Below the pieces are notes generated by a model. It saw only the letters and a list, made by a program, of their open reading frames with translations, was not told where the DNA came from and ran no database searches. A program made the position numbers and the translations under genes. Below are positions 15,464 through 57,606 of a DNA stretch of 64,000 nt, one piece after another; position 1 is the first letter of the stretch, and the number at the start of each line of letters is the position of its first letter. The stretch is from Eledone cirrhosa (Eukaryota), in contig OZ024754.1 in assembly GCA_964016885.1 (NCBI GenBank), forward strand, positions 18,042,001 through 18,106,000, given 5' to 3'.

Positions 15464-15628
15464 ATATAAGATCAAAAGATGGTTAAAGGAGTTCCATGTA
15501 TTTTATTATGCGCATTTCAAAAACAAACATCATCATGCAATAATATTTGTGTTTTCATCAGATAAAACAGGAGAACATGATATGAAGGCTAAAAAACACT
15601 TGTGGATAGTGCAGTTTTAAATCAACAT

Positions 15629-19929: not shown

Positions 19930-20990
19930 TAGTCTATCAAAGTTCTTTCGTTGCACATCTGCAACATCATCAGTGGTACTATTATTATGTTCCCTCCTAT
20001 TGTATTGTATTGTAATATCTACACCATTTTTATTTAATTTATTTATTTATTTATTTTTGTCTCCGTCTCTGCGTTTGCATGTGTGTATAATGTTTGGTGT
20101 GTGTTTTCGAGTGTATATTTTGGTTTTTGTATTTATCTTTGATTACTAGTGTGTGTTTATATGTTATTGTTGTTATTGTACTGGTGTATATATTTATTTA
20201 TTTATATTTCCCTTAAGTCAGTATTGTTTGTTTGGGTATTGTTGTTGTTATTCCATTCATTCTTTCTGTTTTACTTTGGTCTTTAAGCTCTATCTCAGTT
20301 GATTCTCTGATTTGCCTACCTGTAGAGTCATTTCTATGCTTGGATATTATTTTAATTTCTATGTTGTCTATATTACCATCATGTCTATGTCTAGCGTGTT
20401 CATATAGTACTGAACCGTTTTTTCGTCCTTTTAGTTCCCCCCAGTGTTAGTCTATCCTTTCACCTATGCTTCCAGCTGTCTCACCTATGTATGTTGTTGT
20501 CATGTTTCTGCAAGTACCCTCTGTACATCTTATGCTATAGACTACGTTTCTAGTTTTACAGTTTATCCGGAGGTTTACCTTACATATGATACATTTCCTA
20601 TTAGTACAGTGGGTTTTCTTAAAAGGGTAGGTTTTGCTGATCAGGGATTTTATGGTGGTTCCTGGCTTTTCTACCACCTTAATTTTTAAGTGGGTTTTTC
20701 TCAGGGCCTTTCTACACTGGTTAGCTAATTTCCCTCCAGGGGTAGCGTCCACAAACATGACACTCTGATATCTCTGGTTGTCGTACCATGAGGTGGCTTT
20801 CCCTATCTTATGTCTAGCCCTATCTAAGCTATTCCATGATTTGATCCTGTATAATGGGCAAATTCCTTTCATGTCCAGTTCTATGAGGGTCTTATACTTC
20901 TCCATGGCTCCTTCGTATACTCTGACTCTGTCTCTTTGGTTGTAGCCAGAGAACTGCATGCGGTTGATGAAGTGTTGGATGTGTCTTTTT
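19930..20990 (-). mobile_element. Penelope-like element, 3' fragment (RT C-terminus/linker + GIY-YIG endonuclease), defective
   Basis: ORF 20447-20959: FVDATPGGKLA...CKTRNVVYSIRC...YIGETAGSIGERID; reading continues past an in-frame stop (SVLYEHARHRH...RQIRE); hammerhead in the 3' region. Confidence 0.85.
19935..19978 (-). ncRNA. Type I minimal hammerhead (slightly degenerate) 3' of a Penelope-like ORF
   Basis: tacca-CTGATGA-t-gttgca gatg tgcaac-GAAA-gaac-TT-tgata; one mismatch in stem I. Confidence 0.65.
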
Positions 20991-21115
20991 AATTCTTATT
21001 AATTCTGGAAATATTACACAAATATGACTCTCCCCAAGTATAACAATATTTGTTTCGACACACGATTTCATATAAAAAACCTCGCAAAACTAATTCATCG
21101 CCGTTATATATATAT

Positions 21116-22789: not shown

Positions 22790-26640
<3,851 letters not shown>

Positions 26641-26699
26641 GTGTGTGTGTATATATATTTATGTATGCATGTGCATGTGTATGTATGTATGTATGTATA

Positions 26700-27308
26700 T
26701 GTCAGGTTACAAGTTGGTGCTACTGGTAACATGTATCCCAGTACAACCTGTCTCATGGTCGGGTCGTTGGCAACTAAACTGGCAACCTCACCAAGGTTTC
26801 TTGGTGAGGAGGGTGACTTTGGATATCCTGCAGGACTAAAAACAAAACCTGTCAAAGGGCAAAAGAGCTCTTAAGAGTCAATGGCCATCCAAAATCACAG
26901 GGAGAGATGACCCCTTAGCGTTTGTCAAGGCAGAATTCTAGAAGGAAAACTCTGATATAACACCTGCAACCCTGATGGTATCCAATGATGTTGACTTGTT
27001 CTTCTTTTTGGTAAATATCATCTTGGTTAAGAGAGTGGGACTGGCTTTGTGCAGTGCCTTTGCTCACTATAAAAGCTTCACGGCACAGGCATTGCTTTAT
27101 ATCTCGAGATCTCTCTGCACTTGTCGTCACATGGTACCATGGGCCCAGCACTATGTGTCAGTAATTGTCACAAGTGTAGTGTTTGTACCAGAGTTTTCAA
27201 GTCGCTGGCTGGACTAAAAAGTCACACTCGTTCAGCGCATCGGTAGGGGTTCTCCTACATGGATATAAAGTAGTGGCCGTACTCGAAAACGAGTTGGTAG
27301 CCACCATA
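26700..27308 (+). mobile_element. ~610-bp non-autonomous non-LTR element (probably an internally deleted RTE derivative), copy 1
   Basis: Near-identical to 34769-35380 with the same ends; 3' part encodes a C2H2 remnant HKCSVCTRVFKSLAGLKSHTRSAH*; a fragment also lies at 21649-21767 (-). Confidence 0.7.
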
Positions 27309-27546: not shown

Positions 27547-28530
27547 TTATTTTCTTTACATGTCATAATTTTCCCACAAAATTAAGTGTATTTTCCTACC
27601 TATTTATATATATTTGCGTGGTTATTCGCTATTATTTACATATTTATTTTTGGATTCAACACTTACATATTAGTTTCTGTGTGTATGTATATATATATAT
27701 ATGTGTGTGTGTATGTCTATGTATGTGTATACATGTGTCCGTTTACATGTCTTTATGAAATTGTATGTATTTTTGTACGCCAGTGCCGTTACGTACGAGT
27801 TGTGTGCGTGTGTGTGTTTATTTTTTTATATCTTAATATTTTTTGTTTTTTATTTCTTTGGCTGTCTGGTCAGATGGATACATATATTAAGTCAATAACC
27901 CGGCTTTGAAATGTGCCTATGTTTGTATCTATGTATGCTCGCGCATATATATATATATGTATGTATATATATATATATAATAAGGGTTGACGGACCCAGC
28001 ATATTTATCAATGCCAGTACCGGTTGTATCTCAGCGCGCTCAATGGGCAATGTAAGATACATTACCAGAGTATACACAAAGTTATTTGCCTCAACACAAC
28101 ACACGTAAAACGGGTGCATATAAGGTTCCCGGCCTCGAGTTTCTGCCGCACTAATGCAGCAGTAAGGTGCACTGCACCATCTGTCTGCATATATTATGCA
28201 TATATATATATATATATGTATTTATTTGTACCCCCTAACATATATTATGCATATACATACATGTATTTATTTGTACCCCTCTAACATTACGTTCTGCATG
28301 AGAGTGTATATTTTTCCTGTTATTTTATTTTATTTTATTTTATATTTTTTATCATTTTTAATTTTATTTTATTTCAGCCTCGCTTTCAATTGTAATAGCC
28401 TTTGTTTTTAATTTCATATCTTATATCCATATTAAATTTTCATTCTGATGAATGATTTCAGACATCTCTGTTGAACTCGCCTGTCTTCATGAAACCTTTG
28501 GTAAATGGAATAATTGTATTGTGTTGTTTA
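27320..28530 (+). repeat. Inverted copy (pseudo-LTR-like) of 22855-23780
   Basis: Reverse complement of the Penelope 3' region (near-identical MYFPTYLYIFAWLF pseudo-ORFs at 23166- and 27586+); carries an extra ~210-bp insert at about 27980-28190. Confidence 0.85.
28441..28507 (+). ncRNA. Type I hammerhead ribozyme
   Basis: catt-CTGATGA-atga...tcat-GAAA-cc ttt gg-TA-aatg; GUA triplet; inner agaca/tgtct extension of stem II. Confidence 0.8.
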
Positions 28531-44379: not shown

Positions 44380-44502
44380 ATATATATATGTATTTGCATA
44401 TCTATCTATCTAACATGCTAGGTTCTGATCCCATGTGCGTTTAATATTCGCATACTATTCAGTCTTCTGATATACTTAGTAGTGGAGGGATTACTAATTT
44501 TT

Positions 44503-44580
44503 ACACCCACTGAAGAGCAATGAATTGGTAATTTCCTTCGCTAAATAATTGTGAAACAGCTACCAAAGCTGTCTGGGTGT
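44503..44580 (+). ncRNA. Type I hammerhead ribozyme with full stem III
   Basis: acaccca-CTGAAGA-gcaat...attgt-GAAA-cagc taccaaa gctg-TC-tgggtgt. Confidence 0.85.
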
Positions 44581-44983
44581 TCAGGTAGTTTCCCAATATA
44601 GGTTTGTTTTTCTTTTCCTTGATTAAATTGAGTCTGGCAAACCATATTGTTATAGTTAGTATTTTTTTCACCCTAGCGAACTTCGTCCCTTACAATTCGA
44701 ACACATGTATGTTTATATTTGTGTTTACCTCTCTTTTATATTCAATTATATTAATTGTAAGAGACTATTTTGAGTTTCTAACTCAATATATACCTTTATA
44801 TATACACATACACATATATATATATATATACATCAGTATATATATACATATACATATAAATATATATATACATATATCTATATATATACGTCTATATATA
44901 TATAAATATATGTCTATATATATATATGTGTGTATATAGTGACGAAACATAAGTCAATTGCATGAACTCATAATACTTTATTT

Positions 44984-45039
44984 ACTGCTATATATATTTC
45001 GATGATAGCCATTGAATGGCTATGACCTCATCAGGCAGT
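44984..45039 (-). ncRNA. Type I minimal hammerhead ribozyme (sense to PMCA pre-mRNA)
   Basis: actgc-CTGATGA-ggtc atagccat tca atggctat catc-GAAA-tatata-TA-gcagt. Confidence 0.75.
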
Positions 45040-45255: not shown

Positions 45256-45333
45256 TATGGTTTCTTTGTATTTCTTAAAGGGAGTAATTGGGGAAGATAG
45301 AGTAGAAAAAGAAGAGAGAAAGAAAGCGAGAGG

Positions 45334-45364
<31 letters not shown>

Positions 45365-47049
45365 TTATGTAGGGGTAGGAGAAATGGGAGAGAGTGGTTT
45401 GAAGAATACAGATAGCTTAATCTAAATGTTGTGATAGGGGTCCAACAAGTGGTTTTATTATACTGCTTACTCTCAAAGTGACAACTTAGGCATTGTGTTG
45501 ATATTATCAAGTTTGGAATTATTTATTGCCACAGAGAGCAGGTTAATAGATGTAGAGAAGGAGGGAGATAGACAGAGGGAGAGAGAGACAGAGAGAGATA
45601 GATAGAGAGAGAGAGAGAGAGAAAGAAAAAAGTTAAGAGAAGGGGAAGGAAAGGCATAAACACAAGTTGATAGTTGTAGTTTGCTGATCATGCTTAAGTA
45701 TCCATTTATTACGATGAGTAAGGTACTGGTTAGTAGTGTGTGTGAGGAGGGGGGGGGGATATAATTAGGAAGTAGTTATTGAGTGAAATTAGTTAGCGAG
45801 AAAGTGGTGTAGTAGTCTGAGGTTCAAATTATGTTAAGTTAATTTAGCCTTCAGTTTGTGGTTGCAGTATAACGATCGTTCGATTCTGTCATTTAGTAAA
45901 TTGTTTTTAAGCTATCATACTCCACTGCACCAAACCTAGAAGCACACATAAAAAAACTTAACTTAAAGTGATTATTAAACAACACTACAAAACAAAATAT
46001 TTTAGACACAGATGGGGATAATGTAATATCAACTTCCCAACAACCAAATGGGAGACAAGTATTACACAACCCACTTGTACTGTTATCCCAACCTATCCAT
46101 CGTACAGTTGTTACCTATAACAAAAACTGTAATTGCCACCTACCCGAGAGATGCCCATTGAAGAATAAATGCCTGGAGTCCAACATTGTTTATCAATGCA
46201 CTGTTGAATCAAACGACCAGAAATGGTATTACGTTGGGTCTACCACTACCTCCTTTAAATCACGCTGGTATCGTCATCGATTTTCAATTAAACATCCTGA
46301 ACACTGTTATGTAACTACACTCGCTAATAAGACCTGGCAACTCCGTGAATACAACCGGCAGTTCACCCTAAAATGGGATAAATCATCCAGCGCTAGTGCA
46401 TATCGGAGTGGATTAAAATACTGCAGATTATGCAACCTTGAACTTTTTTATATCTTGAAATCTAAAAACAATTTACTAAATGACAGAATCGAACGATCGT
46501 TATACTGCAACCACAAACTGAAGGCTAAATTAACTTAACATAATTTGAACCTCAGACCACTACACCACTTTCTCGCTAACTAATTCCACTCAATACTTAC
46601 TTCCTAACTATACTCCCCCTCCCCATACTACTAACCAGTACCTTGCTTATCGTAATAAATGGATACTTAAGTACGATCAGCAAACTACAACTATTAACTC
46701 AGTGTATTTCCTTCCCCTTCCTAACTTTTTTCTCTCTCTCTCTCTCTATCTCCCTCCTTCTCTACATCTATTAACCTGCTCTCTGTGGCAATAAATAATT
46801 CCAAACTTGATAATATCAACACAATGCCTAAGTTGTCACTTTGAGAGTAAGCAGTATAATAAAACCACTTGTTGGACCCCTATCACAACATTTAGATTAA
46901 GCTATCTGAATTCTTCAAACCACTCTCTCCCATTTCTCCTACCCCTACATAACTCTCTCTCTCTCTCCCTCCCTCTCGCTTTCTTTCTCTCTTCCTTTTC
47001 TACTCTATCTTCCCCAATTACTCCCTTTAAGAAATACAAAGAAACCATA
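45256..47049 (+). mobile_element. 5'-truncated Penelope-like element with 5' inverted copy of its 3' end
   Basis: GIY-YIG ORF 46158-46538 (NIVYQCTV...YYVGSTTTSFKSRWYRH...CRLCNLE); 45256-45908 is the reverse complement of 46464-47049. Confidence 0.9.
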
Positions 47050-47310
47050 ATTCAGCCATTCCTTCTGAAGAATTGATGGTACGAACAGCATTTGAAAATT
47101 GAGTATCTGCAAATTAATAACTACCAATTTGCATATAGCATGACTAGGCTGTGTAACTACTAAAGAAACATTTGTAAACACTTGGAATAAATTACCTTTT
47201 TATGATGTCTACCTGTTTTATTAATCATTCTTTATATATATGCAACAAAGGAGGTGTGGTAAGGAACCAGATGGACCGTAACGCACCAGAGTACTCAATA
47301 CTTAGGGTAA

Positions 47311-47482: not shown

Positions 47483-47939
47483 CACAAAGCGGACGTAAAT
47501 TGATGATGATGATATATATATACAATATATTAACAAATGGAAACTATATTCATAAAACCATATTTATTTCATTATACATATTTCAAGGGCCACCTGAACA
47601 AACCATGGTGCGCTTTCATCAGATAAAATATAATATAGGTTAGTTTTATAAATAAATATTGACATACCCTTAAAAAATGCAACCAATCTGGTTGGAATCT
47701 CCTATGTCAACATGAATGGACCTGTTATTTTTATCTCAACACATTTTATCCCCCCCCCCCGTCTTCTCAATCTATCTTATTTCTCATTCTTTCTTCTGAT
47801 AAAGGATCAGTGTCCATTAAGACCCTCTTCCGGCTATATCAAGAGTTAACCTAATATATCCCTTCCATATACTGTACTGGTTGTGTTGTTATTTCTGTTT
47901 ACCTTTTATATACATATGTGTGATTATGTATATATATAT

Positions 47940-52740: not shown

Positions 52741-53756
52741 CTAATAAAAACAGAAAGAACAAATTGAATTAACTTAAGATGTAAAGCTGTAGAGTGATTA
52801 ACCAACAAAATCATGAAAAATAATAAAGCTGCTGTAGATTATAAAAGAAATGTAAAAATCATAAATAAAAAACAAAATATAGATTGGTATGTACACAATC
52901 GTTCTTATTAATTCTGGTGCAAAATGCAGTAAAATCTTGGTAATGGTTACTAATATCAAATACTGTCTACAGTAGCAGACATTTAAATAGGAAGTAATTT
53001 ATATATACTTTATAGAAGAGAGAATTTTGCTATAATAAATGACATCAAGATTTTTCTGCAAATTATATCAACAATGTAAATATTTACAAAGAGATGTGTA
53101 CATACCGACAAAAATAAAAAGTAATAAAAACTGAAATATTTATCAGTACTAGTAACATGGGACAATGTAGTGCCTTCATATCCTAAAAAGGAAAAAAGGA
53201 ACACACACACACTGGCATTAACAGCACATCACTCTGGCTTATAATTATAACAATTAAAACTAGTCAGTCTTGAATTAATTAATAATTAACTGCCATATTG
53301 TAGAAGTGGATATTTTAACACTTGTTACCAACTTGCCAAAAACCGCCTCTGGTTCTATGACCCCACCTCCCTCCCAACAAAAAACCCATCCATTTTAAAA
53401 GGTCCTTATTTAAATTAAAATTTTGAATCATAATTTGACATGAGAACTTTTTGTTAAGTTATACCTTAAGTTATACCTATACAAATACCTTCTTAATAAT
53501 AAATAGTAAATCGCTCCAAATTCTTCATTAATTTAAGTGCAGTGTACGTTATTAGATATATGATAATGAAAGAGATATTTCTTTTCACCATTAAATTATG
53601 CATAGCATCTATTTCATATCCTCTTTTATTTTGTATATTGAAGACAACAGAATGTCTCATATTATTCTTGACATACAGCACTTTTTAAAAACTACCTTAT
53701 TAGAAATAATGACATTAAATTAATTAAATTAAACAACATTTTGGTTTAGATTTTTG

Positions 53757-55442
53757 CCCAGTATAGTATTATTGAAATTATAAACTTATTCTTAGCTTTT
53801 TACAAAGTATAGTATTATTGAAATTATAAACTTATTCTTAGCTTTTTACCCAGTATAGTATTATTGAAATTATAAACTTATTCTTAGCTTTTTTCCCAGT
53901 ATAGTATTATTGAAATTTTAAACAAATTCTTAGAGTTTTGCCCAGTATTGTATTATTAAAATTATAAACTAATTCTTAGAGTTTTTCCCAGTATAGTATT
54001 ATTGAAATTATAAACTAATTCTTAGAGTTTTACTCAGTATAGTATTATTGAAACTATAAACTAATTCTTAGAGTTTTTCCCAGTATAGTATTATTGAAAC
54101 TATAAACTAATTCTTAGAGTTTTACTCAGTATAGTATTATTGAAACTATAAACTAATTCTTAGAGTTTTTCCCAGTATAGTATTATTGAAACTATAAACT
54201 AATTCTTAGAGTTTTTCCCAGTATAGTATTATTAAAATTATAAACTAATTCTTAGAGTTTTACCCAGTATAGTATTATTGAAACTATAAACTAATTCTTA
54301 GAGTTTTTCCCCGTATAGTATTATTAAAATTATAAACTAATTCTTAGAGTTTTACCCAGTATAGTATTATTGAAACTATAAACTAATTCTTAGAGTTTTT
54401 CCCAGTATAGTATTATTGAAACTATAAACTAATTCTTAGAGTTTTTCCCAGTATAGTATTATTAAAATTATAAACTAATTCTTAGAGTTTTACTCAGTAT
54501 AGTATTATTGAAACTATAAACTTATTCAGTATAGTATTATTAAAATTATAAACTAATTCTTAGAGTTTTATCCAGTATAGTATTATTGAAACTATAAACT
54601 AATTCTTAGAGTTTTTCCCAGTATAGTATTATTAAAATTATAAACTAATTCTTAGAGTTTTACCCAGTATAGTATTATTGAAACTATAAACTAATTCTTA
54701 GAGTTTTTCCCAGTATAGTATTATTGAAACTATAAACTTATTCAGTATAGTATTATTAAAATTATAAACTAATTCTTAGAGTTTTACCCAGTATAGTATT
54801 ATTGAAACTATAAACTAATTCTTAGAGTTTTACCCAGTATAGTATTATTAAAATTATAAACTAATTCTTAGAGTTTTTCCCAGTATAGTATTATTGAAAC
54901 TATAAACTAATTCTTAGAGTTTTTCCCAGTATAGTATTATTAAAATTATAAACTAATTCTTAGAGTTTTACCCAGTATAGTATTATTGAAACTATAAACT
55001 AATTCTTAGAGTTTTACTCAGTATAGTATTATTGAAACTATAAACTTATTCAGTATAGTATTATTAAAATTATAAACTAATTCTTAGAGTTTTACCCAGT
55101 ATAGTATTATTGAAACTATAAACTAATTCTTAGAGTTTTTCCCAGTATAGTATTATTAAAATTATAAACTAATTCTTAGAGTTTTACCCAGTATAGTATT
55201 ATTGAAACTATAAACTAATTCTTAGAGTTTTACTCAGTATAGTATTATTGAAACTATAAACTAATTCTTAGAGTTTTACCCAGTATAGTATTATTGAAAC
55301 TATAAACTTATTCAGTATAGTATTATTAAAATTATAAACTAATTCTTAGAGTTTTACCCAGTATAGTATTATTAAAACTATAAACTAATTCTTAGAGTTT
55401 TACCCAGTATCGTATTATTGAAATTATAAACTAATTCTTAGA
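53757..55442. repeat. 46-bp AT-rich minisatellite, about 38 units
   Basis: CCCAGTATAGTATTATT(G/A)AAA(C/T)TATAAACTAATTCTTAGAGTTTT(A/T); four identical 32-bp deletion variants. Confidence 0.97.
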
Positions 55443-55995: not shown

Positions 55996-56117
55996 TTATT
56001 AAAATAATAGATTAAAGTTTAAAAGCGGAATAAATATTTGCTCTATGGATTTTATATATAAATTATCCTTATTGAGCCCTCTTCGGATTTTAGTCTTCAC
56101 ATTTATTATTATAATTA

Positions 56118-56578
56118 TCATCATCATTTTACGTCCGCTTTTCCCTGCTTGCAAGGGTGGGACGGGTCTTATTCAGCACAGCATCTCTCCACTTGTCACG
56201 GCCCTTCATCATCTCCACCGTGAGCTTCAGCGATCTGAGGTCTGTTCTCACCACCTCCGCTCATGTTTTTTGTGGTCTACCTCTACCACGTCTTCCTTCA
56301 ACTGGCATTTCCTGGCACTTCTTCAGCCATCGGTCATCCTCCATGCACATCACATGTCCATACCACCTCAGTCTCCTCTCCCGTACACTACATTCTATCC
56401 CTCTCAGACACAGTTTCTCTCTCAACACATTCATGCTGGGTCGTTCACGCACATTGACATTGCACATCCAATGGAGCATGCTTGCCTCATTTCTCTCCAG
56501 CCGTCGCATATCCTCTGCAGTTGGTGCCCATGTCTCACTACCAGGCAGCATCGCGCTCCTCACACAGGCATCATATAA
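56118..56578 (-). mobile_element. RTE LINE 3' fragment
   Basis: ETWAPTAEDMRRLERNE...[10 protein letters not shown]; tail at 56118. Confidence 0.9.
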
Positions 56579-56857
56579 CTCAAAATAGTCTCTTACAACA
56601 AAATAGCTCTAAGAGATATTTCTGAGCCATATATTATAATAGAATATAAAAGAAAATATAAAAGTTCCTAACTCAATATATACCGTTGATATATTCGGCT
56701 CCGTTAATTTGTTGAGCTATTTCAAATGTCGAATAAACCTGGCTGCTATTTTTAGTGGTGTAAGTTTGTGAGACACGCTAAGATACCATGTGCGCTATTA
56801 TATATAGCACACTATTCAGTTTCTTAATATACTTAGAAGTGTCTAGGATACTAATTC

Positions 56858-56935
56858 ATCACCCACTGATGAGCTTGAATTGGTAATTTTATTCACAATT
56901 AACATTGCGAAACAACACCAAGTTGTCTGGGTGAT
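56858..56935 (+). ncRNA. Type I hammerhead ribozyme with full stem III, paralog of 44503
   Basis: atcaccca-CTGATGA-gc...gc-GAAA-caac accaa gttg-TC-tgggtgat. Confidence 0.85.
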
Positions 56936-57606
56936 TGGTAGTTACCACAATTCTGGTTTGTATTTATTTTCTTGCTTTTTTCTTAAATTGAGACAAGCAA
57001 ACCCTATTGTCTATAGTTAGTATTCTTTTCACCTTAGCGAATCTGGTCCCTTACGATTTGAACACATATATGTATATATCTGTGTTCGTTTTTCTTTTAT
57101 ATTCTATTATAATATACGGCTGGGAAATATCTCTTTCTTAGAGCTATTTTGTTGTAAGAGACTATTTTGAGTTCCTAACTCAATATATACATTTGATATA
57201 TATAGTACTTTATATATATTTCACATAATTATCTCACAGAATATTGAATCTATGAGATTTTGATATTATTTATTTTGAGAACAATAGTTTAATACCAGTA
57301 TGAGTGACTTGTTATGGCTAGTTTGAGCAGAAAGAAACAAGAGAATTCTGGCTGGATATGGTCAATTTAAATGCTAAAGGGTTAAAGTAGTTATCTTTAT
57401 AAATAAAACACAAGGTTATATTATAACCACTTTGTTATAATAGCTTAGACATGGAAGTGGCAATTTCATATCTTCCTCCAAACCCATTCCTTTTATTGTT
57501 GACAAGATGTTCAGTGTTCATGCAACACTGATCTATAGCTACCTACCTATGTATCTATGTTCGGATAATACAACATCTATCTACTTGTCTATCTATCTAC
57601 CTACTT

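Follow-up and report, generated by a model that had tools for sequence, protein, structure and literature searches.

An ORF-less hammerhead repeat of Eledone cirrhosa with the insertion marks of Penelope-like elements and a hairpin pair shared with a candidate autonomous partner

Metazoan non-LTR retrozymes have been described as units without an open reading frame (ORF) that carry one full-size type I hammerhead, occur in head-to-tail joins and co-exist with Penelope-like elements (PLEs), and both a circular template and mobilisation by PLEs have been proposed for them (PMC7229834; bioRxiv 10.64898/2026.07.22.740005). This mobilisation has so far been put forward from co-occurrence and from similarity to PLE pseudo-LTRs (pLTRs), while the origin of the two-armed insertions of PLEs is left open in these reports (PMC7229834; PMC8557442; bioRxiv 10.64898/2026.07.22.740005). 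RNA circles have been suggested as templates for PLEs as well as for retrozymes (PMC4209133; PMC7229834). Endonuclease-bearing (EN+) PLEs of the Hydra clade are recognised by partial tandems, an inverted 5'-truncated arm, an optional tail between two ends and (TA)n targets, a combination regarded as the PLE signature (PMC8557442). In vitro, two internal starts of reverse transcription that define the tail have been demonstrated for Poseidon PAc of the green anole, whose reverse transcriptase (RT) requires RNA 3' of the start as a binding region, nicks and extends both target strands and is predicted to act as a dimer (PMC11167929).

A repeat in the genome of Eledone cirrhosa shares these retrozyme features, with the circular template and the mobilisation by PLEs being proposals here too. 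By most of the features tested it is an animal non-LTR retrozyme, departing from the described members in unit size, dispersal, an extra helix termed P0 and a hairpin link to a PLE. The unit of 507-516 nt exceeds the 170-400 nt of the 2020 definition (PMC7229834) and falls inside the range of 51-972 given in a later preprint (bioRxiv 10.64898/2026.07.22.740005). As far as these two sources describe them, metazoan non-LTR retrozymes form long arrays and are tied to PLEs by pLTR homology, whereas the present repeat is dispersed as 0.1-2.1-mers, is tied to a PLE by a shared hairpin pair, forms two-armed insertions in which each strand has one fixed start, and has a large loop II that pairs with the stem I flank. 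That the repeat is a non-autonomous retrozyme moved by PLE machinery is very probable. The fuller reading, to which a probability of roughly 0.6 is assigned, is that an ORF-less hammerhead repeat with PLE insertion marks is copied from two fixed starts on a predicted RNA circle by the enzyme of an autonomous PLE, here called gamma.

The window analysed is a stretch of 64,000 nt from contig OZ024754.1 of the 3.0-Gb genome, and positions refer to it unless they are called unit positions. It contains two copies of the repeat with 72.6% identity over 427 alignment columns (E 1e-62). A first-pass annotation of this DNA had given the family a length of 370-420 bp, which proved too short, the unit being 507 nt in subfamily B (56692-57198) and 516 nt in subfamily A (from locus L002). 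Copy 1, of subfamily A (44413-44795, plus strand), is a one-armed, 5'-truncated unit covering unit positions 79-510, with TA-rich repeats on its flanks and an internal deletion of ~34 nt that takes out hairpin 1. Copy 2, of subfamily B (56692-57198, plus strand), is one full unit and belongs to a larger insertion. The inverted piece reported for it is confirmed at 56577-56656 (minus strand), where a second arm covers unit positions 399-482 with 91.7% identity to 57090-57173; its outer end may be clipped, and it touches a LINE-like fragment (56003-56576, minus strand), which we take to be RTE-type. A short direct repeat had also been noted and could be located at 56663-56694, but it is really the end of an upstream partial unit (56663-56691, plus strand, unit positions 479-507) that runs into the unit start without a seam. 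The reference units of the two subfamilies have no open frame in common; a hydrophobic frame of 120-130 aa, open in some A copies, is broken in B and was rejected as coding.

The anatomy of the insertions was reconstructed from 151 loci in five samples, three of them selected for length, from which 230 distinct arms longer than 40 nt were mapped (loci L001-L151; arms reaching a locus edge left out). Two fixed ends dominate: 93 arms stop at unit position ~425-430 and 99 at ~507-516, where 9% would be expected for both intervals together. In copy 2 these sites correspond to TA site 1 (57100-57116, plus strand, unit position ~425) and TA site 2 (57190-57201, plus strand, unit position ~507), the latter ending the insertion. 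Beyond the arm end, (TA)3 follows in 160 of 192 arms that stop at a canonical site, against 6 of the 38 others. Arms read seamlessly from unit end to unit start in 96 cases, the longest measures 1,078 nt, and arms exceeding one unit make up 65/140 in the length-selected samples and 13/90 in the two less biased ones. Two arms joined head to head were found in 89 of 134 insertions. Where both outer ends are canonical (n=55, a count outside which fall 34 two-armed insertions with a non-canonical end), 52 insertions combine site 1 with site 2, three site 2 with site 2 and none site 1 with site 1. In a somewhat larger set, 54 of 57 were mixed-site against 28.4 expected (p 2e-13), and mixed-site insertions occur in both directions in each of the five samples. 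Partial tandems, the inverted 5' arm, the optional tail and the (TA)n target are thus all present, as in PLE-type insertion. The differences from Hydra-clade PLEs are the missing ORF and the longer tail, which is 82-86 nt in the unit and 97-99 nt in gamma compared with 30-40 nt (PMC8557442). Poseidon PAc likewise has two internal starts, but that report saw neither a strand difference in the start site nor homology to the target (PMC11167929). Here the starts are rich in TA and match the (TA)n target, and each arm uses one of them.

Genome searches with unit queries returned 3,695 and 2,905 candidates, the best 40 of each being scored. An exact pattern for the intact core matched 414 times, and the count for a 31-mer taken at the unit end was 1,078, with no match of either reversed control. 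The exact core pattern fits 49 of 115 hammerhead segments from loci found by DNA query, and the core is intact in 76 of these 115, which were taken without selection for intactness; the number of hammerhead-bearing arms in the genome is estimated at ~1,000. The places listed for the two patterns are spread evenly, and the density of the first 100 would extrapolate to ~405 for the core and ~1,060 for the 31-mer, near the whole counts, so that no large array matching either pattern is expected, with the proviso that collapsed or diverged arrays could slip past the assembly or the exact pattern. Multimers were sought with a 1.7-unit query. Among the 40 best of its 4,345 candidates, short head-to-tail joins were recovered, but no array longer than 2.1 units; tandem hammerheads are a minority, as in locus L043 with two intact cores 508 nt apart. 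Contigs from sequencing runs of unrecorded kind show many unit variants, and an apparent joint in them that "goes back 516" is a product of the two-unit reference.

The link to an autonomous element comes from a small hairpin. After each TA site of the unit stands a CGGCTC...GAGCTA hairpin, the two being spaced by 86 nt. Hairpin 1 (57117-57146, plus strand) follows TA site 1 and has one changed base in its 5' strand in copy 2; hairpin 2 (56696-56719, plus strand) stands immediately behind the TA site 2 that ends the upstream unit, is shared with gamma and is a predicted RT-recruiting signal. In the genome the hairpin pattern has 1,915 matches, and its control none. The first 30 hairpin loci comprise 11 of the hammerhead repeat, 2 of a family named epsilon, 3 of zeta, 7 of delta and 7 ends of gamma. 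Gamma is an autonomous PLE of pLTR-ORF-pLTR structure, ~5.1 kb long, with open RT+GIY-YIG frames of 849 and 850 aa. It carries the motifs RW[R/L], DKT, CxCX5C, CxxC and CxH, a C-terminal endonuclease (with a weak GIY-YIG match, E 0.007) and (TA)n ends, and judged by these motifs it appears to match the published description of the Hydra clade (PMC8557442). Its minimal hammerhead, which differs from the full-size one of the unit, is accompanied by two TA ends, each followed by the hairpin; the two hairpins lie 99 nt apart, ahead of the ORF. Of the gamma copies with an end at site 2 (n=27), four have an inverted-arm end within 1.5 kb, all of them at site 1.

Beyond the hairpin motif, the gamma pLTR and the unit have no similarity better than E 0.035. 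The choice of partner therefore comes from a motif of ~20 nt that stands in the same functional position twice, and from sequence comparison of this kind gamma, or a close relative of it, is probably the element that mobilises the hammerhead repeat. The comparison of hairpins among PLEs covered gamma and two further large families, alpha and beta, and other Hydra-like families also occur in the flanks. Alpha is 44% identical to gamma over 534 aa, and alpha and beta share the PLE architecture. Both, known in the window as endonuclease fragments, were rejected as partners, since their pLTRs do not match the unit and the hairpin pattern was seen in one of 25 alpha loci and none of 17 beta loci. 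In gamma (loci L255 and L269-L271) ~2 kb of non-coding DNA separates the ORF end from the pLTR end, and an extra A stands ahead of GAAA in its minimal hammerhead.

Three further repeats carry the same hairpins. Epsilon (L199, L216; ~490 nt) and zeta (L201, L206, L207; ~530 nt) are diverged sisters with hairpins and P0; CAGAAGA replaces CUGANGA in both epsilon copies seen, and zeta has the cleavage triplet GUU. Delta (L195, L196, L208, L211, L212, L214, L215) is a repeat of ~530-536 nt that shares the hairpin and shows the same kind of insertions; in it the descriptor search gave no canonical hammerhead.

As to the ribozyme, the GUC hammerhead announced for both window copies is real and fits type I. 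It occupies 44503-44580 in copy 1 (core 44510-44516, GAAA 44553-44556) and 56858-56935 in copy 2 (core 56866-56872, GAAA 56909-56912), both on the plus strand, with predicted cleavage after 44573 and 56927 as first proposed. An Rfam search of the window copies gave no match at the gathering score. Seven descriptor matches were found in the window, and only the two unit copies have a stem III of at least 4 bp. The stable stem III also held up, with 4-5 bp and a non-palindromic loop against the usual 1-2 bp (PMC4209133); the absent or 1-2-bp helix III and palindromic loop that mark the minimal, dimer-type hammerhead are not features of the unit. Covariation was followed in 43 aligned rows, mostly chosen for an intact core, and in this set the stem I change (A-U to U-A, 24/19) and the stem III change (G-C to A-U, 28/11) extend across subfamilies. 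The third difference that had been read as covariation, CTGAAGA versus CTGATGA, is none, the differing base being the free position 7. Paired cells reach 92.6% in the 43 rows, compared with 88.3% in shuffles and 33-44% when the pairing is slid, and the closing pair of stem II is G-U in copy 1 and G-C in 40 of the rows. Both bases have changed at one pair each of stems I and III and at two P0 pairs that are well populated, so the covariation amounts to about four independent subfamily-level events within the hammerhead repeat, not 66.

P0 is an extra helix of 17-21 bp in which 20 nt upstream of stem I pair with loop II. In copy 1 its strands lie at 44480-44500 and 44522-44543 (21 bp, -23.5 kcal/mol) and in copy 2 at 56839-56857 and 56877-56896 (17 bp, -13.7 kcal/mol), all on the plus strand. 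Its energy ranges over the subfamilies from -14 to -20 kcal/mol, compared with about -7 once the loop is shuffled, and the best partner of the flank is its own loop in three subfamilies out of four. P0 is kept in epsilon and zeta despite wholly different stems I and III. In 69 of 71 copies it is stronger than the competing pairing that would lengthen stem I, and such lengthening through the 3' flank was rejected as no better than shuffles. A conserved pairing of the stem I side with the stem II side is therefore present, as in pseudoknotted hammerheads, where base-paired stem I-stem II contacts are common and activating and are found in ~40% of hammerheads and in all three types (PMC3088659). 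The examples described there have ~4-6 bp, against 17-21 possible pairs in P0, which in full would compete with stem II: the complete helix leaves a linker too short for stem II to close, and in the minimum-energy fold of copy 1 P0 is formed and stem II is lost. From such modelling the near half of P0 is most likely a stem I-stem II tertiary contact, and its far half may be a brake on re-cleavage of the circle. Cleavage of the unit as a monomer is plausible given that stem III, at 4-5 bp and with a non-palindromic loop, exceeds the usual 1-2 bp (PMC4209133), and it may be slow, since the full-length P0 excludes stem II in the copy 1 fold. Monomers of coral and mussel retrozymes cleave, so that monomer cleavage would be no novelty for retrozymes (PMC7229834).

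The nature of the template is judged from how arms traverse the cleavage site, which 149 of the 230 arms cross once and 16 twice. No pile-up of arm 5' ends was seen there among the 230: two fall within 3 nt, where ~2.4 would be expected by chance from the 35 within 50 nt. Gaps at unit positions 235-241, around the cleavage site, are absent from 132 segments, and together these results indicate that copying does not stop at a cut linear 5' end. Arms ending at site 2 reach 868, 824, 758 and 754 nt, and the longest copy found could template 653 nt as linear RNA. If the RT requires RNA 3' of its start, as described for the anole PLE (PMC11167929), a copy ended at site 2 could not serve as its own template, and linear templates would shrink, never lengthen. 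Arms beyond 653 nt would be explained by a circle, although an unseen long array or precise template jumps would serve too. On balance, a covalent RNA circle is the favoured template, although 8 of 9 Xenopus retrozyme dimers stayed uncut in vitro (bioRxiv 10.64898/2026.07.22.740005). The circular unit folds with z of -5.4 and -3.6 against 30 shuffles, and the minus strands with -3.7 and -4.0.

The rival that survives best, unlikely but to be reckoned with, holds that the template of the PLE machinery is a linear tandem RNA, transcribed from one master array or a few and left uncut, with the hammerhead as a passenger or seldom active. Seamless reading through the cleavage site is equally expected under it, P0 could silence the ribozyme, and for the anole PLE uncut RNA is indeed the main template, hammerhead mutants inserting normally (PMC11167929). 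Against such masters stand the pattern counts, which fit pure dispersal, the upper limit of 2.1 units among the 40 best multimer candidates, and the conservation of the fold, since in eight subfamilies or more the core is retained while bases that pair have changed in concert, which points to selection on the structure. A second rival, in which linear monomers are released and the RT, on reaching the 5' end of one, jumps to the 3' end of that molecule or of a different one, would dispense with a ligase and might claim the two arms that start within 3 nt of the cleavage site; with these at chance level, and no indel scar at the site in the 132 segments, it is rather improbable. Beside the supported identity of an animal retrozyme moved by Penelope-type reverse transcription, the first-pass annotation offered that of a solo pseudo-LTR. 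The unit would then belong to an autonomous PLE that the searches missed, which is highly improbable, since for all the full PLE architecture of the unit, the pLTR matches of Xenopus retrozymes (bioRxiv 10.64898/2026.07.22.740005) and the examination of 151 loci among a few thousand candidates, none of the 151 is joined to a PLE ORF, the PLE coding fragments in the flanks of 16 of them come no nearer than 96 and 116 nt and are there set apart by (TA)n, the 96 end-to-start arms have no ORF between, the unit has no match in the pLTR of alpha, beta or gamma, and a same-strand hammerhead pair 2.7 kb apart, considered as pLTR-ORF-pLTR, is a local duplication.

Under the preferred reading of a circle copied by the gamma enzyme, rare copies with two hammerheads would be transcribed and cut twice, and the released monomer would be ligated into a circle. 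The RT-endonuclease of gamma, probably as a dimer, would bind both hairpins, and each of the two strands of the (TA)n target would serve as a primer, one starting reverse transcription at TA site 1 and the other at TA site 2, as the footprint of mixed ends suggests. The cDNAs pass the cleavage site and the unit junction, reach lengths of as much as 2.1 units and end up head to head, as seen in the insertions, and arms that pass the hammerhead twice would become the next masters. The near half of P0 would supply the stem I-stem II contact, while the far half may restrain renewed cutting of the circle. A broader proposal is offered tentatively: the hairpin pair could be a cis signal by which the RT dimer of a Hydra-clade PLE grips one RNA and primes both strands with one start per hairpin, several circular retrozymes of this genome could parasitise the enzyme by this signal alone, and P0 could be the switch that lets the hammerhead cut the precursor and spare the circle.

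If this were true, a hairpin pair gripped by a dimer would explain both the PLE tail and the head-to-head arms. The hammerhead repeat offers a candidate enzyme with open frames, a candidate binding hairpin of 25-30 nt and a sharp rule of one start site per strand, so that a single in vitro assay could address the partner, dimer priming and circle templating. A further candidate role of P0 is to stop hammerheads in animal RNA circles from re-cutting, a question left open by PMC7229834. A literature search brought up no hairpin shared between a retrozyme and a PLE and no priming at one site per arm, and supplementary families, figures and tables may hold precedents.

Several other features of the window deserve mention. 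Four hammerhead motifs with a short stem III and a mostly palindromic loop III lie in other repeats, at 44989-45034, 47573-47622 and 15507-15561 on the minus strand and at 28445-28503 on the plus strand. Positions 45260-47050 hold a two-armed fragment of the Hydra-like PLE alpha, with an endonuclease frame at 45972-46538 (plus strand); in the genome, alpha gave 58,274 first-look candidates and has frames that stay open over 785 aa. Two more PLE families are represented by endonuclease fragments on the minus strand at 20447-20995 and 26073-26870. The former is beta, a young family with a Neptune-like linker, frames of more than 1,000 aa and an asparagine-rich N-terminal part. A satellite with 46-nt units and a higher-order period spans 53746-55442.
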